Source of the DNA: an uncultured delta proteobacterium
GTDB taxonomy: Bacteria; Myxococcota_A; Polyangia; Haliangiales; Haliangiaceae
Direction: 5' to 3'
DNA: 64,000 nucleotides
NCBI GenBank assembly: GCA_963848295.1
Contig: CAWKDB010000010.1
Coordinates: forward strand, 608,001 to 672,000
The position numbers were made by a program, and so were the translations under genes. The notes under the pieces were generated by a model, which was given only the letters and a program-made list of their open reading frames with translations, was not told the DNA's origin and searched no databases. This document shows positions 2,159 to 59,000 of the stretch, piece by piece; positions within the stretch are counted from its first letter, which is position 1; each line of letters opens with the position of its first letter.

Positions 2159-2659
2159 ATGACCATCATCGACAAAGCGCTGATCGCAAACCAGGCGTAT
2201 GCGAAGAAGTACGATCGAAAGCTGGCGGCCCGACCAGCGCCCAAGATCGCTGTCGTGACGTGCATGGATCCGAGACTTTCAGACCTTCCTGAGATCCTCG
2301 GACTACCGCACGCCGATATCGACGTGATCCGAACCGGCGGGCCAGCGGTCACCGAAGCCGTGCTCGGCGAGCTGATCGTTTCCAACCGGATCCTCGGAAC
2401 GACGGAGATCATGCTCCTCAATCACACGGGCTGCGGCTTCACGACGTTCAGTGACGCCGATCTCAACGCGAAGCTATCAGCGTCGACCGGCGACGCGTCG
2501 CCCGCTCCGATGCGGTTCTTCTCGTTCAAGGACCCCGAGCAGAACACGCGGGAGCAGATCAAGAAGGTCAGGTCACATCCGTGGATCGCCAGAGAGGTTG
2601 CCGTCCGCGGCTTCGTACTCGACCTGGAGACCGGTCTGCTCAGGGAGATCCGCGCGTAG
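2159..2659 (+). CDS. Beta-class carbonic anhydrase (short, clade D-like)
   Basis: Zn ligands CMDPR and HTGC; C-terminal V-x-GFV-x-D-x-x-TG-x-L; strong RBS. Confidence 0.9.
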   Translation: MTIIDKALIANQAYAKKYDRKLAARPAPKIAVVTCMDPRLSDLPEILGLPHADIDVIRTGGPAVTEAVLGELIVSNRILGTTEIMLLNHTGCGFTTFSDADLNAKLSASTGDASPAPMRFFSFKDPEQNTREQIKKVRSHPWIAREVAVRGFVLDLETGLLREIRA

Positions 2660-2716
2660 ATCGAGCGCGGTCGCCCACTGGGCGGCTGCTGCGACCGAGC
2701 ACCTGCGCGCGCATCG
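2659..2716 (+). repeat. Intergenic copy of the GATCG...CATCG hairpin element
   Basis: 58 nt with the same ends and length as the copy at 35373-35430; shares GGCGGC and GCTGC-GACCGAGCAC; stem GCGGTCGCCC/GGGCGGCTGC. Confidence 0.5.
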
Positions 2717-2950
2717 TAACTCTTCCGCTGGACTACCTCACGACCGGCCCGCCCGTTAGCGCGAGGAACGTCGAGGGTTGTGCCGTCGCCGCAGCGGTTA
2801 ACGCCGGCGTATGCGTGACTCCAAACCGCTCGTGGCTGCGCTTGCTCGGGCGCGGTGGCGTTCCGAAGGTCGAGTGGTTCGACCACGGATGTTTGCAGCG
2901 TGTTACTCGAACTAGATGCGACCCGGTATCGATTCCATAGAGTCGCGTCC

Positions 2951-34197: not shown

Positions 34198-34658
34198 CGC
34201 GCGGCCTCTGCGAGCTGGGCTTGCACCTCGGCGAGCGTCGCGTCGACCACGGATAGGTGAATCGTCGCGCACAGCGCGTCGCGGCGGTGCACGGTGCCCA
34301 CGAACGCCGCGAGCTGGGTCTGGCCGAACACCTTGTTGACCGTGATCACGAGGTCGTCGCCGACCGCGAAGCTGTCGATGTCGAACGCGACCTCGCGGCA
34401 GCCAATGATCAGGCCGAGCTTCGGCGGGTTGCCCGCGCGCGAGGCACGGACGCCGACCGCGATCGCGCAGACCTGCGCGACGAGCTCGATCATCGCGCTC
34501 GGATGAACCTGGCCGTCGATCGCGAACACGCAGTCGGGGTGGATCGTCGTCCGGCACACGATGCGATCGCCGACCATCTCGACGACCTCGTCGATCAACA
34601 GCATCGGCGGGCGATGCGGCAGGTAGTCGGCGACCGGACCGAACGAGGCGGCGGTCAT
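34194..34658 (-). CDS. Hotdog-fold dehydratase (ApeP-like)
   Basis: LPHRPPMLLID, IE-x-x-AQ. Confidence 0.88.
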   Translation of the reverse strand: MTAASFGPVADYLPHRPPMLLIDEVVEMVGDRIVCRTTIHPDCVFAIDGQVHPSAMIELVAQVCAIAVGVRASRAGNPPKLGLIIGCREVAFDIDSFAVGDDLVITVNKVFGQTQLAAFVGTVHRRDALCATIHLSVVDATLAEVQAQLAEAAR

Positions 34659-35437
34659 CCGCGCCCGCCTTCACCGAACCGCAGCTCGAGCACCGCGCCG
34701 GGTTGGATCCGGCCCAGCGGGATCGTCGCGGCGCGGTCGGTCGCGATCGCGTCGACGATGGACGCGAGCGTCGCGAGCGTATCGATCTCCACGTCGTCGG
34801 TCGCCGGTGCGACGACGAGCTCGATGCGTGGACCGGGGCCTGCTGGCGACAGCACGAACGCCGCGGCGACGCCGACCGGCTGCGTCGGCCCGCGAAACAC
34901 CGCCGGCACCGGCTCGTCGGCGATGCTGAGCAACACGCGGCCTCCATCGAGTGCGGTCAGCGCGGCCTCGAGCCAGCCGGCGGCGATCGCGTTGCTGCCG
35001 GTGACCGTCGTCGTCGGTGCGCTATCGCCGAGCGCGACCGAGTACACACCCGATGGCGTGTTGTGCACGCTGAGCGCGAACCGCGCCGAGCTGACGTGCT
35101 GCGAGTCGCGAAAGTCCGCGATCAGGTTTTCGGCGGTCTCGATCTCGCCGTGGCAGGTCGCGAACACCGCCGCGGCGGCGCCGGTCGGCTGGACCGCACC
35201 GCACACCTCGAGGTGCATCTGAGTGACCAGGCTCGTGAAGCGCCGCGCCCGGGCCACCACGAGCGGGAACGTCGGCGCGGTGCGCTCGCGCACGCGCCCG
35301 GCCAGGACGTCCTGCGCCGACGCGTGATGCGTCGAGAACAAGCTCGAGCTCGCGATGTAGACCGAGCCGATCGATCGAACCGCACTGCCATTCGGCGGCG
35401 CTGCTGACCGAGCACGGGTCCCGGTCATCGCGGTCAC
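34655..35437 (-). CDS. Ketosynthase chain-length factor (ApeC-like)
   Basis: RR-x-(T/S), F-x-x-x-HGE, S-x-x-x-F-x-x-SVHN; no catalytic Cys. Confidence 0.82.
   Translation of the reverse strand: MTAMTGTRARSAAPPNGSAVRSIGSVYIASSSLFSTHHASAQDVLAGRVRERTAPTFPLVVARARRFTSLVTQMHLEVCGAVQPTGAAAAVFATCHGEIETAENLIADFRDSQHVSSARFALSVHNTPSGVYSVALGDSAPTTTVTGSNAIAAGWLEAALTALDGGRVLLSIADEPVPAVFRGPTQPVGVAAAFVLSPAGPGPRIELVVAPATDDVEIDTLATLASIVDAIATDRAATIPLGRIQPGAVLELRFGEGGRG
35370..35430 (+). repeat. In-frame double-hairpin element in the 5' end of the CLF gene (antisense orientation)
   Basis: CCGCACTGCCATTCGGC (35380-35396) is identical to the minus strand at 38709-38725; second stem TGACCG/CGGTCA; ATCG direct repeats 57 nt apart. 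Confidence 0.7.
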
Positions 35438-36627
35438 GATCGCCTCGCCGTCGGCGCCGACACGACCACGCTCGCGTTGCTGCCGCCGAAGCCGAACGCG
35501 TTGACCAGCACGTGGTGGAGCCGCGCAGCGGTGCGCGTGTCGACGACCGCCATGCCGAGCGTGTCGTCGACCGGGGCGAGCCGCAGCGTCGCGGGAATCT
35601 CCTGGCGCCGCAGTGACTCGATCGCGAGCACGAGCGCGGTCAACCCGGCCGAGCCGAGCGTGTGCCCGGTCAGGCTCTTCGTCGCGGTCAGCGGCACGCG
35701 GCGCTCGAACACCCGGGTCACCGCGGCCGCTTCGGCCGCATCGTTGAGCTTCGTGCCCGTGCCGTGCGCGCTGACGTAGTCGATCTCGTTCGGCGTGAGG
35801 CCCGCGCGATCGAGCGCCTGGCGCATGCACAGCTGGCCGCCGAGCCCTTCCGGATGCGGGCTCGTGTGATGAAACGCGTCCGACGCCGCGCCGATCCCCG
35901 ACACGCGAGCGATCGCCCGCCGCGCGGTCGCTTCGTTCTCGCGCTCGATCACGACATACGCCGAGCCCTCGCCGAGCGTGAGGCCGGCGCGATCGCGCGC
36001 GAACGGCCGAGTCGCGGTCGGCGCGGTCAAGCCGAGGCTATGGAAGCCGAACACCGTCGTCCGGCACAGCGAATCGGCGCTGCCGACCACGACCGCGTCG
36101 GCGAGCCCGCGCTCGATCAACCGCGCCGCCGAGGCCAGCGCCTTGAAGCTCGACGAGCACGCGGTCGAGATCGCCATCGCGATGCCGGTCACCCCGAGGT
36201 AGTCCGCGATCGCGGCGGAGGTCGCGTCGATCGCGTGATCGGCGTAGCGATATTCGCTCCCCGAGATCGCGAGCCGCGGATCCGGTGCGAGCGTGCGCTC
36301 GGTCTCTTCGAGCCCACCGGTCGAGCTCGCGAACACGTACGCGACTCGGCTCGCGCCCCAGCGCTCGACCGCCGCGCGCGCCGCCGGGCGGAGCTGGGCG
36401 ACCGACGCGAACGCGACCGCCGCCTGGCGCGTCGGCGTGCAGGAGAGTCGATGCTCGACCGGCGACGCCGGCATGACGCCGAGCACCGTCGCGAACGGGA
36501 ACGCGTGAAGCTCGGCCGCCGGAGAGAACGCATCGGCGCCGCTGAACGCGCGCTCGAACGCGGTCGCGTTGTCCATGCCAAGGCAATTCGCGATCGCCGC
36601 GCCGGTAATCGGATAGCCCGCGGTCAC
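35434..36627 (-). CDS. Beta-ketoacyl-ACP synthase (ApeO-like)
   Basis: STACSSS, HGTGT-x-x-ND, K-x-x-x-GHTLG, NAFGFGGSN. Confidence 0.92.
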   Translation of the reverse strand: MTAGYPITGAAIANCLGMDNATAFERAFSGADAFSPAAELHAFPFATVLGVMPASPVEHRLSCTPTRQAAVAFASVAQLRPAARAAVERWGASRVAYVFASSTGGLEETERTLAPDPRLAISGSEYRYADHAIDATSAAIADYLGVTGIAMAISTACSSSFKALASAARLIERGLADAVVVGSADSLCRTTVFGFHSLGLTAPTATRPFARDRAGLTLGEGSAYVVIERENEATARRAIARVSGIGAASDAFHHTSPHPEGLGGQLCMRQALDRAGLTPNEIDYVSAHGTGTKLNDAAEAAAVTRVFERRVPLTATKSLTGHTLGSAGLTALVLAIESLRRQEIPATLRLAPVDDTLGMAVVDTRTAARLHHVLVNAFGFGGSNASVVVSAPTARRS

Positions 36628-37877
36628 GAGCGGCCTGCGGCGTTGGCCGGTCGGCACAGCTCCGCTAGCGCCGCGAGTCGGCGCCGCGACTGCGGCCCGT
36701 TGTAAGGGTTCTTGGGATCCCAGACGTAGCCGCCGAGCACCGAGCAGATCATGCGGTAGATCTCCGGCGACTTGTTCGGATGGAAGATCACGTCCTGAAA
36801 CGTGGCGTCGTACCAAGCGCGGACGAAGGTGCGGAACGTCTCGACGCCGAACATCAGCGGCTCGGAGAAGTCGCGCTGCCAATCGACGGCCTCGCCCTTG
36901 AACCGACGATCGAGCGTCTCGGCGGCGAGCTTCGCCGACTGCAGCGCGATCGTGACGCCCGACGAGAACACAGGATCGAGGAACTCGGCGGCGTTGCCGA
37001 GCAGCGCGAACCCCGGGCCGTGCAGGGTCGAGACGTTTGCCGCGAACCCCGCGATCTCGGCGACCGGCCGGATCATCTCCGCATGCTTCAACAGCTCGCG
37101 CAGCTTTGGCTCGGCTCGAACCAGCCCCCACAGCCGTTCCTCGTCGCTGCCCGTACCTGGCTTGAAATGGTCGGGTGGCGCGACGATGCCGAGCGAGCAC
37201 GTGCCATTCGCGAACGGAATCAACCACGACCAGACATCGCGCCGGGCCGGGGCGATGCCGACGCGGATCTTCTGGCGGTCGAACGCGCCGGACACGATGC
37301 GGTCGCGAACGTGCGTGAACCGCGCCGCACGGACCGGAAAGTCCGACGGCTTCTCGAGATCGAGCAGGCGCGCCAACGTCCGGCCAAAGCCGCTGGCATC
37401 GAGCACGAACTTCGGGCGATGGATCTCGACCTCGCCGCCCTCGGTCCTCGACGTGACGATCGGCCGCTCGCCGGTGACGTCGACCGCGGTGATCGCCACG
37501 CCGTGACGCACGGTCGCGCCGAACCGTTGCGCTTCGCTCGCCAAGATTTGATCGAACTCGGCGCGCGCGACCTGGAACGTGAAGCCGAGGCCGGGGCTGA
37601 TCTTCGCGCCGAAGTTGAACTCGGCGTGCTGATCCTCGAAGTCGAACGCGGCACCGTTCTTGTACTGAAAGCCGCCCGCGATGACCGCGTCGAGCATGCC
37701 GGCCTCGAGCAGGAGCTGCGCGCCGTACGCGAGCAAGCTCTCGCCGATCGAGAACCGCGGAAACAACTGGCGCTCGAGGACCAGCACATGATAGCCGCGC
37801 TGCGCGAGCAACGCCGCCGCCATCGAGCCCGACGGACCTGCGCCGATGACCAGCACATCTGGAGCAACAACAGCCAT
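36624..37877 (-). CDS. FAD-dependent halogenase-like oxidoreductase
   Basis: GAGPSG, FPRFSIGESL, WSWLIP (WxWxIP), GNAAEFLDPVFSSG. Confidence 0.85.
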   Translation of the reverse strand: MAVVAPDVLVIGAGPSGSMAAALLAQRGYHVLVLERQLFPRFSIGESLLAYGAQLLLEAGMLDAVIAGGFQYKNGAAFDFEDQHAEFNFGAKISPGLGFTFQVARAEFDQILASEAQRFGATVRHGVAITAVDVTGERPIVTSRTEGGEVEIHRPKFVLDASGFGRTLARLLDLEKPSDFPVRAARFTHVRDRIVSGAFDRQKIRVGIAPARRDVWSWLIPFANGTCSLGIVAPPDHFKPGTGSDEERLWGLVRAEPKLRELLKHAEMIRPVAEIAGFAANVSTLHGPGFALLGNAAEFLDPVFSSGVTIALQSAKLAAETLDRRFKGEAVDWQRDFSEPLMFGVETFRTFVRAWYDATFQDVIFHPNKSPEIYRMICSVLGGYVWDPKNPYNGPQSRRRLAALAELCRPANAAGRS

Positions 37878-37883
37878 GAGGCT

Positions 37884-38477
37884 CTAGTCTTCCGACGAGC
37901 CGTTCGCTGCGGCGGCTTCGGCCGGTGCTAGTGCATGCGCGAAGTCTTCGTCGTCGAGCAGCTGCGAAGTGGCGTCCTCGAGCGCGCTCGATAGCGCCTC
38001 GTTGAAGTTCTCCGGGCTGTGGGTGTGGCCGAACTTGTGGCTCGTCCCGAGGTAGGTCTTGGACCACACCGGATCGTTCGGACCGCGATGCACGAGCACG
38101 TGCAGCCGCGCGGTGCCGCGGAACATGTTGCCCTCGACGACCTTGAACTCGGTGAGCTCGGTCGCCACGCCCATCACCGGCGGATCGCGCAGCCGCGCGC
38201 CGGCGTTCTCGAGCATCTCGCCGACCCGCGTGCTCGCGAAGTGGCCGACGTTGTCTTTCGTCCGGACGACGAACCCGCTGTCCTCGTACGTCCCGATCGC
38301 GGACGGATCGGGCCGGAGGTCGCGCAGCTCGAAGGTGATCGGCGTGGCCGCGAGGGCCTGTGCGACCTCCGAGCTTGGATGGGGCGAATCGTCCCCGCGC
38401 CACGACAGAGGAAGGTTCTCGATTTGACCTGCGCCGCACGCGGAGGCCACGACTAGTGCGATTGGGAAGAGCCGCAT
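37884..38477 (-). CDS. Lipoprotein (possibly YajG-like), probable first gene of the APE operon
   Basis: Lipobox ASAC; D-x-R motif; ends 6 nt before the halogenase-like gene. Confidence 0.65.
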   Translation of the reverse strand: MRLFPIALVVASACGAGQIENLPLSWRGDDSPHPSSEVAQALAATPITFELRDLRPDPSAIGTYEDSGFVVRTKDNVGHFASTRVGEMLENAGARLRDPPVMGVATELTEFKVVEGNMFRGTARLHVLVHRGPNDPVWSKTYLGTSHKFGHTHSPENFNEALSSALEDATSQLLDDEDFAHALAPAEAAAANGSSED

Positions 38478-38531
38478 AGTGGCCAACCCATACCACACGT
38501 TGTTGGATTTGAACGGGTTTTTTGAAGCTCG

Positions 38532-39203
38532 TCAGTTCGCGTCGGCGACCATCCGCCGCACCGCCTCGACCGCCCACGCGCGATCGATCCGCAGCTCGTC
38601 GTTTGCCGGGCCGGCGCGCTCTCTTAGCTTGACGTAGGTCGACAGCGGGCTCGCGACCGCCTGCGGACCGCTCGGATCGCCGGCCGGGACCTGCGCCCCG
38701 GCAGCACTGCCGAATGGCAGTGCGGGTGGATCGAATCGCAGCCAGCGGAGGACCTCCTCGTCGCGATCGACCGCCGCGAATAGCAGCACGCGATCCAGGT
38801 CGGGCTCGGCGAGCGACGCCAGCAACAGAACCTTCGTCATCTCCACCGCCCAATCGTCGAGCCCGGCATCGAACACCTTGACCTTCTCGACGAGCGCGTT
38901 GAGCGACGGCACGACCCGGCGGATTCCGGACGCGCCGACCGACCGGATCAGCTCGGCCGCCCGTTCCATCTCCGCATCGTCGCCCGGGCAGACCTGGCAC
39001 AGGAAGCCGTCGGCGAGATACAGCACGGTCGCGGCGAGCTGGACGCGGTTGCCGCATCCGCACGTCATCAGGTTGAGCTCACCGGCCAGCAGTCTTTGCT
39101 TGTCGCTGCCCGCGGTGCGGCCGTCGATGCTCTGCACGAGCCTGCAGTCGTGCTCGACGCCGCAGTCCGGGCAGCTCACTCGGATCGTTCCGACGATGCT
39201 CAC
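38532..39203 (-). CDS. CpXC domain protein
   Basis: CPDCG...SID...LL-x-G-x-LN...CGCG...LY. Confidence 0.8.
   Translation of the reverse strand: MSIVGTIRVSCPDCGVEHDCRLVQSIDGRTAGSDKQRLLAGELNLMTCGCGNRVQLAATVLYLADGFLCQVCPGDDAEMERAAELIRSVGASGIRRVVPSLNALVEKVKVFDAGLDDWAVEMTKVLLLASLAEPDLDRVLLFAAVDRDEEVLRWLRFDPPALPFGSAAGAQVPAGDPSGPQAVASPLSTYVKLRERAGPANDELRIDRAWAVEAVRRMVADAN
38674..38733 (-). repeat. In-frame 54-nt double-hairpin element inside the CpXC gene
   Basis: GCACTGCC-4nt-GGCAGTGC (38704-38723) and a GCCGGG...CCCGGC stem (38683-38702), bounded by CGATCC direct repeats exactly 54 nt apart. Confidence 0.75.
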
Positions 39204-39222
39204 GAACGCGGAGCGTAGCGCG

Positions 39223-40731
39223 TCAGCCCGGCGAGAAGCCGAACGGGAACTTCACGTTCGACAGCGAGCCCCGTGCCGGGAACCTCAGCAGCCGGATGTT
39301 GCGCTGCACGCAGCTCTCGACCGCGTCACTATGCAGCGTGCTGCCCGCGCCGATCCTCGCGCTCGTCACGACGCCCTCGCCGTCGATCTGGAAGTGCACG
39401 ATCAGCTTGCCGGCGAGACTCTCGTTGCGTTGCAGCTCTCGCGTGTAGCAAACGCGGATCAGGCCCCTACCTGCGTTCACGACCTTGGCGATCTCTCCTT
39501 TGGTCAGGACGCCGTCGGTGTCGCTCGGGCCGTCGATCTTGACGACCGGGATCGGGCCGATCGGGCCACCCGCGCAGTGCGCGCCCTTGCACTCCGGGGC
39601 TTTGCGTTGCGGCACGAGGGTGACCGGGCCATGGCTCGTCACCGGACCCTTCGGCCCGGGGCCACCGGTCTTCGTGCATAGCTGACCGGGAAAGCACTCA
39701 CCCTGGCCTTTGCCGTTGTGCTTGCCGGTGCCGTCGCCGTGACTCGGGCCGAGGCCGCTGAACTGGCCGAGATCGAGACCGCGACCGAGCATGCGATCGA
39801 GCTGGGTGCGATTGTGCGGATCGAGCATTCCGACCGCCGGCCCGGCAGGCGTCGGCGATTCGGTCGGCAGACCGGCGGGGTGCGGTCGTCCGCCGCCCGG
39901 CCTGGTGCCCGGCGAGACCGTCGTGATCGCGGTCGGGTTGGGCGCGATCGTCGTGGTCGTCGCTATAGTCGACGCGCTCGTCGCGACCTTCGGCTCGATC
40001 ACCTGCTGCTGCGGCTCGAGGCGCGTCACCAGATAATTGCCGGTGAGCGAGCGCGTGCCCGGCCACGCGAACGCATTCGACCCGTCGTAGAGCGAATAAA
40101 CCATGAACAGCAGCGCGGCATGGGCGAGCGCCGAGAACACGATCGACGCCTGCGACTCGCCATCCTGGTTGATGATCCACCGCATCAAACCACCGAGTGC
40201 GATCGCGGCGGTCGCGAGCGCGGCCCCGCGTGCGATCGCCTCGCCGACGTCGACGCCCTTGATCGCCCACATCGCGGCGAGGCCGACGCACGACACCGCC
40301 CAGCCGATCGCGCCCGCCATCATCACGTTCTTCGTGAGGAACGGTCGCTCGTCCTCGACCGGAACGAACTGGAAGAACAACTTGTGAACGCCGGTCTCGT
40401 CGAGATCGATCACGCCCCAGTCGCGACCGCTGATCGGCGTCGCCCAGAATCCTCCTTGACCGGAATCGCCGGCGCGCTTCATCAGGTCGCGAACGTCTTG
40501 TTGCTGACCGTCGATGCAGATCGTGCCGCGCATCCGCTCGCTCAGGGTCAGCAGGAACCCGCGATTCCCCGGCTGGACGATCGCGAACTCCGGTGGCAAC
40601 CCGAGCTCCGGCACGACGAACGTCGGTCTCCCGGACGCCCCGATCGTGATCCGCTTCGGATTCTTGAGGACGACGTCATCCATCACCTCGTCGTTCCAGA
40701 TCAACGCAGTACGGAGCGCGACTGTGGTCAT
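39223..40731 (-). CDS. GltG/AgmX-PglI-like protein with TonB-like C-terminal domain
   Basis: N-terminal LR-x-ALIW-x-D, TM segments, Gly/Pro-rich linker, C-terminal I-x-x-VV...IR-x-CY-x-x-EL...L-x-GK...F-x-I...V-x-x-C...FP...V-x-FPF. Confidence 0.8.
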   Translation of the reverse strand: MTTVALRTALIWNDEVMDDVVLKNPKRITIGASGRPTFVVPELGLPPEFAIVQPGNRGFLLTLSERMRGTICIDGQQQDVRDLMKRAGDSGQGGFWATPISGRDWGVIDLDETGVHKLFFQFVPVEDERPFLTKNVMMAGAIGWAVSCVGLAAMWAIKGVDVGEAIARGAALATAAIALGGLMRWIINQDGESQASIVFSALAHAALLFMVYSLYDGSNAFAWPGTRSLTGNYLVTRLEPQQQVIEPKVATSASTIATTTTIAPNPTAITTVSPGTRPGGGRPHPAGLPTESPTPAGPAVGMLDPHNRTQLDRMLGRGLDLGQFSGLGPSHGDGTGKHNGKGQGECFPGQLCTKTGGPGPKGPVTSHGPVTLVPQRKAPECKGAHCAGGPIGPIPVVKIDGPSDTDGVLTKGEIAKVVNAGRGLIRVCYTRELQRNESLAGKLIVHFQIDGEGVVTSARIGAGSTLHSDAVESCVQRNIRLLRFPARGSLSNVKFPFGFSPG

Positions 40732-45207: not shown

Positions 45208-45750
45208 ATGACGGCGACGCGAACCACGTGGGGCGGCACCCGCCCCGGCGCCGGACGACCGGCGAAGCACGCGATCACGAGCGAGCGCCATCAGCGCCGG
45301 CCGGCGCTGTCGCGGCGTCATCCCGTCCGGGTCGTCGCGCGCGTGGTGCCGGCCGTGCGTCGACTGCGCTCGCGATCCGGCCGCCGAGCGATTGCCCACG
45401 CGATCGCGCTATCGCTGGCGCGAACCGAGTTTCGGATCGTCTACGTTTCGGTGCTCGCCCATCGGCTCGAGCTGATCGTCGAGGCCGACGATCGGATCGC
45501 GCTCGCCCGCGGCATGCAGGGCTTCCAGATCGCCGCCGCGCGTGCGCTCAACCGCGCATTCGGCCGGCGCGGCGCGGTGTTCGCCGATCGCTACCACGCG
45601 CGCCCGCTCGCGACTCGCGCCGCCGTGCGCGCAGCGGTCGTCGAGCTTCCGCCGGCGACGCTCGCCGCGGCCTGGCCGCTGACCTGGCTGCTCGTCGTCG
45701 AGCTCGTGCCGGCGCGCAGCTGGCGACGCCCGCCGGCGCAGCCGCCGTGA
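45208..45750 (+). mobile_element. RAYT/IS200-like Y1 HUH transposase homolog, apparently catalytically degenerate
   Basis: GG-x-R-x-GAGRP, LIVEA-x-D...LARGMQG...AR-x-LNR...R-x-G-x-VFADRYHAR; the HUH position reads R-L-E and no catalytic Tyr follows. Confidence 0.75.
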
Positions 45751-54522: not shown

Positions 54523-54963
54523 TCAATCGCGGGGCGCGAGCCGCTCGAGTGCGGCGCGCATCCGATCCGGAATCGCGACCGGCCGGCGGTGCGCGCGATC
54601 GACGAACACGTGGACGAAGTGGCCGTGCGCAGCGGCGAGCGGCTCGCGGCCGAACAAGGCGACGCCGTACGTGACCGATCGCGCGCCCAGCTTGTCGACC
54701 CGCACGCCCGCGACGAGCTCCTCGGGATAGGTCACCGCCGCGTGAAACTGGCAGTGCGATTCGACGACCACGCCGATCACGTCGCCGCTCGCGATCTCGA
54801 GGCCGGCTTCGCGGATCAGATACAGGTTCGCGGCGGAATCGAAGTAGCTGTAGTAGGTGACGTTGTTGACGTGACCGTAGATGTCGTTGTCGCTCCACCG
54901 CGTCGTGATCGGCGCGTGAAACGGATACTCGGCGGCGGTCGGCCGGGCGCGAGGCTCGCTCAC
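54523..54963 (-). CDS. Acyl-CoA thioesterase (4HBT/YbgC hotdog family)
   Basis: [22 protein letters not shown]. Confidence 0.9.
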
Positions 54964-56312
54964 CAGTACTCCAGCGCGCGCGCGAACAGCGCTTCGAGCT
55001 CGGGCTCGCCGATCGGCAGCGGCGCGTTGCCGAGCAAGCGCTGTTGCGGCGCCGCCCCCGCGACGAGCGCCGGGACATCGGCGGCGCGATAGCCGACCGC
55101 GTGCAGGCCGTTCGGGATCGCGATCGATCGCATCATCGCGATCACGGCCGCCGCGAGGCGCTCGCCGGCCTCCCGCTCGGTCGCGCCGCGAACGTCGCCG
55201 CCGAGCAGCGCCGCCGCTTCGAGGTGGCGAGCCGGCGACGTCGCTCCCGTCGCGCGAAACACCGCGGGCGCGGCGATCGCGACCGCCATCCCATGCGGCA
55301 CCAACCCGGATGTGCCAGGGCGCGCGGCAACGCGTCGCGCTGCGGACGGTAGATCGAGCGGCGCATCGGGATAACCGGGCGAGCGAAACTCGCGGACCTG
55401 GCCCGCGATCGCGTACGCCATCGCATGTGGCACGTGGACACCCGCGTTGCCGAACGCGATGCCGGCGAGCGTAGCCGCCCACATCATCTGCTCGCGCGCA
55501 CCGCGATCGCCGGCGACCGCGGCCGCGAGGTGTGCGCCGCACAGCCGCAGCGCTTCGCGACAACCGAGATCGCTCCACGGATTCGCGCCTTGGCTCGCCG
55601 GGCGAGCCAGTGGGCTGGCCGGCGCCGCGCGCGTCGCAAACCCGCGCGCGGTGAACGATTCGATGGCGTGACACAGCACGTCCATCCCGCTCGCCGCGAC
55701 GACCTGGGACGGCAAGGTCTGCGCGACGCGCGGATCGATCACCGCCTCGCTCGGCCGCAACCGCGGCGAGCTGATCCCGGTCTTCGCGCGACGCGCATGC
55801 CAGTCGAAGATCGCGATGCCGGTGACCTCGCTGCCGGTGCCCGAGGTCGTCGGACATGCGATGTGCGGCGCGAGCGGACCGGGGACCGCGCGGCCCTCGC
55901 CGAGCGGGGCGTTGACATAGGCTTCGAGCGCCGCCGGATACGTCGCGTAGAGGTTCGCGGCCTTCGCCGTGTCGATCGCCGAGCCGCCGCCGAGCGAGAC
56001 GTAGCCGTCGGGCCTCGCGTCGCGGGCGAACCGGATCGCGTCGTCCCATGAGGCTTCGGTCGGCTCGATCGCGACCGCATCGAACACGCACGGCTCGATT
56101 TCGGCGGCGCGCAGCGAGGCGAGCAGCTCGTCGCACCACGGCAACGCGCGGACGCGCGGATCGGTGATGACCGCGGCGCGGCGCATCCCGAGTGCTGCGG
56201 CACGCGGTCCGACTTCGGCGAGCGCGCCCAGGCCGAAGGTCACGCGCGACGCATCGATCGTGAACGCGGTGTCGCAGCCCGCGCTGACGGCCGCGAGGTG
56301 CGCGCACGTCAC
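54960..56312 (-). CDS. Hydroxyacid-oxoacid transhydrogenase (Fe-ADH family)
   Basis: GGGS-x-IDT-x-[11 protein letters not shown]-x-x-x-HA-x-ES, FGNAGVH-x-x-H, VPHG. Confidence 0.88.
55302..55356 (-). repeat. Probable in-frame 54-nt double-hairpin element in the transhydrogenase gene
   Basis: Starts CGATCTACC; stems GCAGCGCG/CGCGTTGC and CCCTGG/CCGGG; encodes [18 protein letters not shown] between PL and VPHG. Confidence 0.5.
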
Positions 56313-58815: not shown

Positions 58816-59000
58816 ACGCCCATCTTGCCGCTTCCCACGCCGCGGGCAAGCCTCGACGCGGATCGATCGATCGGCTGTCCGGCGCAGCAAGGACGGCCGA
58901 ACCCTCACGCGGAGAGGCCCCCGGTTTACCGGGGCCGCGACACCATCAGCTTCCACCGGAGCGAGCTTGCGCACCGCGCCCGTTGTTCCTAGCTTGCACC

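Follow-up and report, generated by a model that had tools for sequence, protein, structure and literature searches.

Two unrelated genes in the 64,000-nucleotide stretch of DNA analysed here (the window), from an uncultured soil delta proteobacterium, each contain a similar palindromic segment that leaves the reading frame intact. This raises the question of whether the two segments are copies of one mobile element and, if so, what it recognizes as a target, how it is moved and what it does to the proteins that it enters.

Two copies in the window

The copy in the ketosynthase chain-length-factor-like gene (copy 2; positions 35370 to 35431, plus strand; 72.4 bits) comprises a full 57-nt unit and a 5-nt end repeat. 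Its first hairpin (35382 to 35401, plus strand) has an 8-bp stem, a 4-nt loop and a sequence conserved family-wide, whereas the second (35405 to 35427, plus strand), with an 8-bp stem and a 7-nt loop region, keeps its pairing while its sequence is free. The host gene (34655 to 35437, minus strand; Pfam PF13723) has a GTG start overlapping the stop codon with which the upstream ketosynthase gene ends, and the antisense insertion lengthens it after codon 3 by 19 codons (MTGTRARSAAPPNGSAVRS). As predicted, removal of 57 nt gives the start VTAIGSVYI; the site is empty in the close relative G105, whose allele reads MTAVGSVHV with a gap of exactly 57 nt. Element matches were present in 0/17 orthologous loci, most of which begin at the ketosynthase stop and have a short N terminus.

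Copy 1 (38677 to 38735, minus strand; 62.1 bits), a 54-nt unit with its end repeat, was found where the original prediction had placed it, with CGATCC repeats 54 nt apart and a segment encoding DPPALPFGSAAGAQVPAG. It lies in sense orientation in a gene for a CpXC-domain protein (38532 to 39203, minus strand; Pfam PF14353), to which it adds 18 codons. Two 8-bp stems had been proposed for it; stem 1 does have 8 bp, but stem 2 consists of six unbroken pairs because 3 nt have been lost from its left arm. The CpXC gene of G105 is empty, with a gap of exactly 54 nt, and 17/17 CpXC orthologs are without the inserted segment. A contig of sequencing run X1, which may be the source sample, crosses copy 1 with zero differences, and no joint skipping copy 1 or copy 2 was seen in the DNA contigs, which are of low depth.

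Two further segments of the window had been put forward as diverged copies. The one at 55302 to 55356 proved to be a clean 54-nt in-frame insertion (55303 to 55356, minus strand), empty in 4/4 orthologs found, in a gene of the iron-containing alcohol dehydrogenase family (54960 to 56312, minus strand; PF00465). It has a TCG-type site and a family-like left end (TCGATCTACC); its membership of the family was not upheld, with no match to the family HMM or CM and an alignment to copy 2 no better than those of shuffles (p=0.27). With a body that is not alignable to the family, it is either a diverged copy or another element. The other segment (2656 to 2717, plus strand) scored 13.9 bits with the CM, rank 16 among noise. 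Its spacing is family-like, and its global alignment to copy 2 beats 500/500 shuffles, a post hoc comparison for a segment chosen for its likeness; no ortholog was found in five genomes, and the segment is no more than a possible decayed copy of the family.

A family restricted to one genus

A profile search of the genome containing the window (G000; assembly 85% complete) confirmed that the family is genuine and far commoner than the window alone could reveal. The 57-nt double hairpin occurs in 177 copies at 152 loci (E<=0.01), against 0 in the reversed-genome control, as expected from the proposal of further copies genome-wide, and called genes contain 109/152 of these loci. Units of the different subfamilies measure 51, 54, 57 or 60 nt, all multiples of three. 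The loci are clustered, with 10 neighbour pairs within 1 kb compared with 3.2 expected, and no replication-strand bias of the copies is evident.

The family is restricted to a single genus (Kofleriaceae in the record titles) and patchily spread there, 37/90 genus genomes being without any match; beyond the genus, the 149 remaining genomes of the phylum sample gave none. When 185,579 species genomes were scanned for the exact pattern, 8 assemblies matched, none of them titled Rickettsiales or cyanobacterial, the viral contigs searched gave 0 matches, and Rfam gave 0 up to E=1 over window positions 34500 to 39500. A full-text literature search, most subscription journals being outside its coverage, returned no published description of the family, and a REP survey (main text and four supplements) does not name the myxobacterial genera looked for. 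The original picture of a lineage-specific, non-autonomous element that inserts 18-19 codons into unrelated genes while preserving the frame, with empty sites in relatives, is thereby sustained.

Both stems carry compensatory changes (128 double-sided pair changes versus 42 in shuffles). The two hairpins are directly adjacent and hairpin 2 abuts the junction; in the position profiles, the palindromic TCGA at either end is the only terminal inverted repeat. Several subfamilies have GC-GNA-GC loops, which form stable DNA mini-hairpins. On one strand A.C mismatches exceed G.T (74 versus 41; 51 versus 18) and therefore one strand folds better, an asymmetry that comes largely from two inherited positions.

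Target site and insertion alleles

The relative G105 yielded 127 pattern matches (control 0). Among the 101 copies examined, 33 show a net difference of +57 nt, 12 are shared with G000, 20 are without an ortholog, 4 lie at contig ends and 32 gave other values. Twenty-nine clean filled/empty pairs, in which the empty site reads T in 25/29, C in 21/29, G in 25/29 and A in 20/29, correct the target from the predicted (C)GAT(C) to (R)TCGA; some of the empty alleles could be losses rather than ancestral states. In these pairs the host match crosses from left to right inside the 5-nt repeat, and the 1-6 informative pairs per position, which partly conflict, do not fix the exact cut point. The T following TCGA belongs to the element, being present in 88% on the left and 32% on the right.

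The flanking repeats show no sign of a target duplication: left/right identity at T, C, G and A was 115 versus 113.0, 162 versus 161.2, 152 versus 152.8 and 105 versus 104.1 expected (n=174). Because CG is nearly invariant at both ends of the element, a 2-nt CG duplication is beyond the reach of this correlation test. The host letter preceding TCGA tracks the element subtype (13/27 versus 12/65, p=0.009; 14/24 versus 4/55, p=3e-6), and covariation links a single position of the element to a single letter of the target, which recalls the target choice by base pairing described for IS200/IS605 (PMC8266576). A HIP1-like excess of the target was ruled out, TCGA occurring in G000 at 0.99 of expectation. 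Overwriting of host letters by the element was unsupported (12/41 versus 12/36), as was local hopping, close neighbours being no more alike than distant copies (four testable pairs).

Effects on coding sequences

TCGA sites lie inside genes in 89% of cases, and the genic share of fresh insertions is 25/29 against 0.89 expected (p=0.55); the codon phase of intragenic copies gave 87/109 against 0.80 expected. Four reading frames are used by the copies. The element had been called stop-free, which does not apply throughout: 76/174 copies are open in all six frames, compared with 19% of shuffles. Over 3,639 codons, the host genes show 692 synonymous and 311 nonsynonymous changes and 0 new stops. 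Tandem arrays consist of exact 57-nt repeats, head-to-tail, and vary in size between G000 and G105 (1 versus 4 copies at two loci). The sole argS found in the genome carries five tandem copies (+95 aa), and Era, RecG and UvrD have each gained 19 aa. Copies in G000 (70/109) and G105 (20/25) lie preferentially in one orientation with respect to the gene; we set this bias aside because it is absent in metagenome loci (11/30). An AlphaFold model has low confidence over the insert, partly since no other row of the alignment covers it.

Search for a mobiliser

Our survey covered Y1_Tnp, IS110, IS91-like and RT genes, half elements and recurrent neighbours, and no mobiliser linked to the element was found among these. 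Genes for Y1 HUH enzymes occur in 87/90 other genomes of the genus and are equally common in element-free genomes. None of those in G000 is flanked by the element, the nearest copy being 1,990 nt away, and 39 Y1 loci gave only two weak matches (21-22 bits); the flank check covered 30 of >800 genus Y1 matches. The 301 element-centred loci have one Y1 neighbour, about the number expected from an estimate based on the Y1 density of G000. At one locus (L450) the Y1 gene near a copy adjoins the host gene and is unflanked by the element, and multi-copy Y1 genes, which encode proteins of 250 aa and stand beside two other Y1 types in G000, have conserved flanks that differ from the element. The suggested link to REPs and RAYT found no support, with neither a GTAG/CGTC tag 5' of the stem nor an element-flanked Y1 gene. 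IS110 was not found in G000 at its 85% completeness, and the one IS91-like gene lies 20 kb from the nearest copy. Three RT genes exceed the Pfam cut-off in G000, the closest copy being 7.5 kb away, and one RT protein used as a query had no match among the 301 loci. Left and right half elements around a cargo gene were not seen in a search whose right-half profile is insensitive, and the largest groups of recurrent neighbours at the 301 loci are big paralog families.

How the element may move

The best explanation, to which we assign a probability of about 0.5, is a non-autonomous 57-nt two-hairpin element that inserts precisely at (R)TCGA, mostly in frame in genes, and owes its movement to an HUH (Y1, RAYT/IS200-like) enzyme that is encoded elsewhere and acts in trans on the folded single strand. 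It starts from what was directly observed, namely copy number, precise 57-nt filled and empty alleles, the target, both stems, open frames and multiple-of-three lengths. The mover is likely an HUH enzyme of this kind acting on folded single-stranded DNA. Hairpin 1, conserved in sequence, would be the protein-binding end, and hairpin 2 would be needed as shape only. Cutting and joining would take place inside the TCG core, and an element terminating in the target's own tetranucleotide would leave a 5-nt repeat without duplication. Each new copy would recreate the target and a direct repeat, from which exact 57-nt arrays could expand through slippage or renewed insertion. With a length that is a multiple of three, the element could use the genic TCGA sites (89% of the total), and its copies would persist in proteins that can accommodate a Gly/Ala/Pro-rich loop or an extended terminus; the inserted residues are probably translated and would stay disordered as a loop. 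We regard the element as probably selfish rather than as a host adaptation.

An improbable contender, though one to be taken seriously, is host recombination or repair, in which a folded or circular copy pairs through the 5-nt TCGA microhomology. Its integration would need no transposase and would fall to an integron-like tyrosine recombinase or to nick-primed template switching. The tendency of the host letter ahead of TCGA to agree with the element's own end, the single pairs that disagree on which side of this letter the crossover lies, the clustered loci (10 pairs within 1 kb versus 3.2), the exact arrays differing between G000 and G105 and the lack of any transposase found linked to the element all fit this scheme. 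It sits badly with neighbours that are no more alike than distant copies (four testable pairs), host letters beside the site that are not overwritten (12/41 versus 12/36), a sequence conservation of hairpin 1 that points to a specific binding protein, and attC-type ends, of which none was seen. An RNA route seems unlikely; here an enzyme of the retron or group II type would reverse-transcribe a folded transcript for insertion at TCGA. The stems are overwhelmingly Watson-Crick, even though G.T/G.U pairs are tolerated on one strand, and the GC-GNA-GC loops of several subfamilies suit DNA. Most copies are transcribed as parts of genes and three RT genes are at hand in G000; however, the nearest is 7.5 kb from a copy, the RT protein queried is unmatched in 301 loci, both element ends are precise and Rfam has no match. 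The route has a parallel in yeast mitochondrial GC clusters, for which RNA routes are discussed (PMC4478555).

The element is a rather poor fit to a classical MITE, for which a DDE transposase would duplicate the invariant CG (or TCGA) on insertion. The insertions are precise, and CG is near-invariant on both sides, so that a 2-nt duplication would escape the correlation test; yet terminal inverted repeats are absent inside such a duplication, the variable TCGA letters show no left/right correlation, and there are two internal hairpins instead of one end-to-end stem. Least credible, and very improbable, is a function kept by the host, such as mRNA structure, translation pausing or a peptide linker, spread by gene conversion. 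Conserved stems and the favoured orientation (70/109 and 20/25) would agree with it, but only 12/101 G105 copies are at the same site in G000, 37/90 genus genomes are without a match, sites track TCGA availability with four frames in use, and the orientation bias is missing in metagenome loci (11/30).

Significance of the family

The Rickettsia elements, for which no mover is known, raised the question of how palindromic repeats enter genes in frame. Because the present family is of recent origin, has many copies and differs in its sites between close relatives, its target, ends and frame rules can be read directly. It offers a short list of candidate enzymes testable on a 57-nt substrate. With more than 100 peptide insertions gained, the bacterial genome amounts to a natural scan for protein sites that tolerate insertions, and tandem copies are a route to new protein repeat regions; a practical consequence in this lineage is that gene starts and protein alignments are distorted by the element.

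Comparison with known systems

The element resembles Rickettsia RPEs and cyanobacterial SDRs in its behaviour, but its length places it outside both. RPEs are described as lineage-specific palindromic repeats within ORFs that leave the frame intact, housekeeping genes included (PMC3767692, PMC3733652). The likeness lies in a palindromic repeat in frame inside existing ORFs, and no mover is known in either case; by the description available, RPEs (about 100-150 bp; PMC3767692) are set apart by length from our element of 51-60 nt. RPE hosts are AT-rich and intracellular whereas the present host is free-living and GC-rich, and the element has two abutting hairpins and a defined TCGA target, turns over fast between close relatives and forms in-gene tandem arrays. 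The RPE set spans RPE-1 to -7 and Wolbachia relatives. Cyanobacterial SDRs (Nostoc and relatives; work of Elhai et al. in 2008) are reportedly 21-27 nt long with compensatory structure. The comparator is chiefly SDR5 in HIP1, from which the element differs in being more than twice as long, in having two hairpins, in its phylum and in a 4-5 nt target that is not over-represented (TCGA 0.99 of expectation).

REPs, described as short GC-rich stems that have loops of 4-5 nt, vary in a compensatory way and in some cases lie inside genes and encode 20-30 aa (PMC3733652), resemble the element in stems, in compensatory variants and in a host with Y1 HUH genes. Profiles of 102-104 copies, inspected on both strands, show no GTAG/CGTC tag 5' of the stem, and no REPtron (a RAYT flanked by cognate repeats) was found in G000 (85% complete) or in the genus Y1 matches examined (30 of >800). 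The element is mostly intragenic (109/152 loci; 25/29 fresh insertions), whereas REPs are mainly extragenic; it is a fixed two-hairpin unit in head-to-tail arrays, whereas REPs/BIMEs form inverted dimers; and its target is TCGA, whereas the TnpA-REP cuts described are CT or CA (PMC8266576). Derivatives of IS200/IS605 share two subterminal hairpins, a short specific target on one side without duplication (the invariant CG being beyond the correlation test), an end resembling the target and a hint of element-target letter matching. In contrast, the hairpins here are adjacent, with no spacer; inspection of their feet revealed no recognisable guide tetranucleotide of the kind that the IS608 rule requires, and half-element and Y1-flank searches of limited sensitivity found no parent IS with the element's ends. 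Unlike MITEs, the element has neither terminal inverted repeats nor a 4-5 nt target duplication. Mitochondrial double-hairpin elements and yeast GC clusters, described as short, GC-rich and potentially mobile with constrained stems and no known transposase (PMC10085805, PMC4478555), share the short GC-rich double hairpins and constrained stems; as described there, they are organellar and mostly intergenic or in rRNA genes, and yeast GC42 has a duplicated AG target.

We consider it possible, but would not presume, that the family represents a distinct minimal class of mobile DNA whose length evolved in codon steps (51, 54, 57 and 60 nt in separately diverged subfamilies), which colonises coding DNA at full target frequency with machinery outside the described transposase-repeat pairings and gives housekeeping enzymes new loops and repeats that can reach about 95 residues.

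Copies and anatomy of the element

A genome-wide search for further copies, as suggested by the original prediction, used a profile seeded with matches to copy 2 (window 35370-35431, plus strand) and iterated to convergence. It retrieved 177 copies from G000, the genome containing the window (7.78 Mb, 68% GC, 85% complete), at E<=0.01, and none from the reversed-genome control. The copies occupy 152 loci: 141 hold one copy and 11 hold arrays of 2-5, in which the period is exactly 57 nt and most neighbouring units are 0-3 differences apart. Window-wide, copy 1 (38677-38735, minus strand) and copy 2, both present where predicted, are the sole scoring members, with covariance-model scores of 62.1 and 72.4 bits against 18.5 for the next best. 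We put the probability that these repeats are a mobile, frame-preserving insertion family at about 97%.

When window 35370, the first letter of copy 2, is numbered 0, a host letter (position 0) is followed by TCGA (1-4), a linker (5-11), hairpin 1 (12-31; 8 bp, 4-nt loop, conserved in sequence), a spacer (32-34), hairpin 2 (35-57; 8 bp, variable in sequence) and a right end of TCG plus a letter that is mostly A (58-61). Among 76 distinct copies, 91% of the stem pair cells are paired, and double-sided pair changes number 128 (a count of sequences, not events, in related copies) versus 42 in shuffles and 16-34 in slid controls. A.C mismatches are commoner than G.T on the profile strand, which gives the opposite strand a slight advantage in folding; this asymmetry owes much to two inherited positions. 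No Rfam family matches the element.

Empty sites and target

In the ortholog comparisons proposed with the original prediction, the copy-1 segment is missing from 17 of 17 orthologs of its CpXC host (one, L012, from the unpublished genome G010), and none of 17 chain-length-factor loci orthologous to the copy-2 host has an element match; most of these loci start where the ketosynthase gene stops and encode a short N-terminus. The close relative G105 (~90% DNA identity to G000) has no copy at either window site, with gaps of exactly 54 nt (copy 1) and exactly 57 nt (copy 2). G105 has its own copies (127 pattern matches, control 0), from which 101 distinct ones were compared with G000: 33 show a net +57, 12 are shared, 20 lack an ortholog on both sides, 4 lie at contig ends and 32 give other values, including shared copies that have decayed and two loci where one copy stands against four.

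Junctions were read from 29 full-length copies, each marked by one 57-nt gap free of neighbouring indels (2 with such an indel were excluded). The empty sites of these pairs have the consensus (R)TCGA, which replaces the predicted target (C)GAT(C). Within the 5-nt repeat the host match passes from the left flank to the right, with informative pairs partly in conflict over the exact cut point. The left and right TCGA letters are uncorrelated in 174 copies, a test that does not reach the nearly invariant CG, and the 5-nt repeat is therefore not a duplication. In both G000 and G105 the host letter at position 0 tracks element subtype. In the 29 pairs, the host letters lying 5-8 nt to the right of the target differ between G000 and G105 in 17-38% of cases, versus 4-18% for the flank baseline, a pattern that tolerant loops or mutagenic joining would produce.

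Place in genes and host proteins

With a simple codon-model caller (6,538 genes, 86% coding), 109 of the 152 G000 loci fall within genes, 26 lie outside them and 17 span a gene end, compared with 491/600 random windows within genes; the 109 is probably a lower bound, because the true start of the window's chain-length-factor gene escaped the caller. In an unbiased test that judged G105 insertions on the empty genes of G000, 25 of 29 fresh insertions were genic versus a genic share of 89% for TCGA sites (p=0.55), and the frame stays open across the insert in each of the 25. As a control, a second repeat family in G000 has 7 of 58 loci within genes. The dominant codon phase accounts for 87/109 genic G000 loci versus 0.80 offered by TCGA sites, and thus the frame bias requires no selection on the peptide. 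In the test suggested with the original prediction, lengths divisible by three were seen in 83/83 full-length copies within genes versus 20/27 outside, a partly circular figure, as a frameshifting copy would itself disrupt the gene call. Flanking codons of the 27 filled/empty pairs in called genes carry 692 synonymous and 311 nonsynonymous changes, with no new stops in 3,639 codons.

A Pfam scan of 40 of the host genes and four window genes found the hosts mutually unrelated (7/40 without a Pfam family); they include arginyl-tRNA synthetase, Era, RecG, UvrD, an EF-G paralog, SbcD, two siroheme-synthesis genes and a penicillin-binding protein. The genes argS and era, normally essential, have one match each in the 85%-complete G000. 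The only argS found (G000:C11:700301-702295, L288) holds five tandem in-frame copies, which add 95 aa to the catalytic domain and are missing from 22/22 aligned orthologs; in its predicted model (pTM 0.82) the fold is retained, and pLDDT is <50 at residues 186-266.

Distribution and unit lengths

Among 90 other genus genomes, a tally that takes in the unpublished G010 and G066 (both without a match), BLAST found the element in 25 and the covariance model in 53, with at least 1 to >100 matches per genome. Under stricter filters, a phylum sample of 149 genomes outside the genus gave no match. Scanning 185,579 species genomes for the exact pattern returned 36 loci in 8 assemblies, by record title 30 Kofleriaceae, 4 Deltaproteobacteria and 2 Acidobacteriota. 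Metagenome contigs contain at least 122 stretches with the element, and viral contigs gave 0 matches.

Among the full-model matches listed for ten other genomes, unit length is divisible by three in 204/252 (6 listed matches excluded, 83 further ones outside the listing), more weakly in G016 (9/23) and G070 (14/22). Modal lengths among the listed matches are genome-specific, namely 54 and 51 (G074), 57 in seven genomes (one from a single match) and 60 (G071, G103), and are reached via differing linker, stem and loop changes.

Other hairpin insertions

The weaker candidate predicted at window 55302-55356 proved to be a 54-nt in-frame insertion (55303-55356) in an Fe-ADH-family gene, empty in 4/4 orthologs; its left end is family-like, and its body, against the prediction, has no significant likeness to the family. 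A 30-nt stretch at G000:C10:2705129-2705158 resembles its left half (E=0.002) and may belong with it to a rarer family. Near the site matching window 55195, two relatives (L249 and L250) have 39 nt inserted in frame in this Fe-ADH gene that are missing from G000. A decayed copy of the 57-nt family may lie at window 2656-2717; five genomes yielded no ortholog for its empty-site comparison.

Two hairpin-rich G000/G105 insertions, at G000:C10:3154763 (39 nt, with the loop motif of hairpin 2) and L124 (141 nt), do not match the 57-nt family. The second repeat family, seen at window 58851-58928 (plus strand), has units of ~78-88 nt with two hairpins, in tandem arrays; its 65 copies at 58 G000 loci are mostly outside genes, with presence/absence differences of 78 and 84 nt versus G105, and one adjoins a 57-nt-family copy at G000:C2:994878-995005.

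Mechanism and alternatives

We give about even odds that the element would be handled as folded single-stranded DNA by an HUH enzyme supplied in trans. Handling as folded single-stranded DNA fits the precise ends, the short target on one side, and the lack of both a duplication and terminal inverted repeats, as well as the strand asymmetry and the conservation of one hairpin in sequence and the other in shape. IS200/IS605 and TnpA-REP HUH enzymes handle such DNA, with guide letters near hairpins picking sites (PMC8266576). Y1_Tnp (HUH transposase) matches number nine in G000 and occur in 87/90 other genus genomes, so a candidate enzyme is available in trans; no Y1 gene was tied to the element at the G000 Y1 loci, at 30 of the >800 genus Y1 matches or at element-centred loci, and Y1 presence does not predict element presence among the genus genomes. 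Host recombination or repair, acting via the 5-nt microhomology, is unlikely. An RNA route is less probable again, and a DDE MITE slightly less so. A host function is very improbable.

Multi-copy Y1 HUH genes of ~250 aa occur at G000:C2:329920, C10:3657361, C2:1374063, C10:1439431, C10:261551 and other places (L041-L049). Most follow a conserved structured region of ~350 nt (11-13 genome matches); this looks like a mobile element or RNA in its own right. A short motif in the region resembles the second repeat family, with a weak profile match. A shortened Y1-like gene at window 45208-45750 (plus strand) keeps the first His of the HUH region, has Glu as the second and lacks the Tyr-containing helix motif, and thus its product is likely inactive or repurposed. 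An IS91-like Y2 transposase lies at G000:C10:52819-54550, beside a second, inverted partial copy.

Comparison with known repeats

The 57-nt family is real and new as a family, and its behaviour is of a known kind. Full-text literature searches found no account of it, and the portion of PMC6006769 consulted holds nothing direct on the host lineage. RPEs, of 100-150 bp, sit in ORFs with frames unbroken (PMC3767692), and the 57-nt family likewise inserts in ORFs without frame loss; SDR5 inserts precisely in HIP1 (PMC4390886), and our family behaves similarly in its precise insertion. Intragenic REPs are known (PMC3733652; PMC3184786); in contrast to REPs, the 57-nt family has no tag, no extragenic habit and no REPtron (a RAYT gene flanked by cognate repeats) found. 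In structure, the family has analogues in mitochondrial double-hairpin elements and in GC clusters (PMC10085805, PMC4478555). What distinguishes the 57-nt family are fresh insertions measured to be without coding-sequence avoidance, codon-step unit lengths across subfamilies, a readable target and arrays growing within a housekeeping enzyme.
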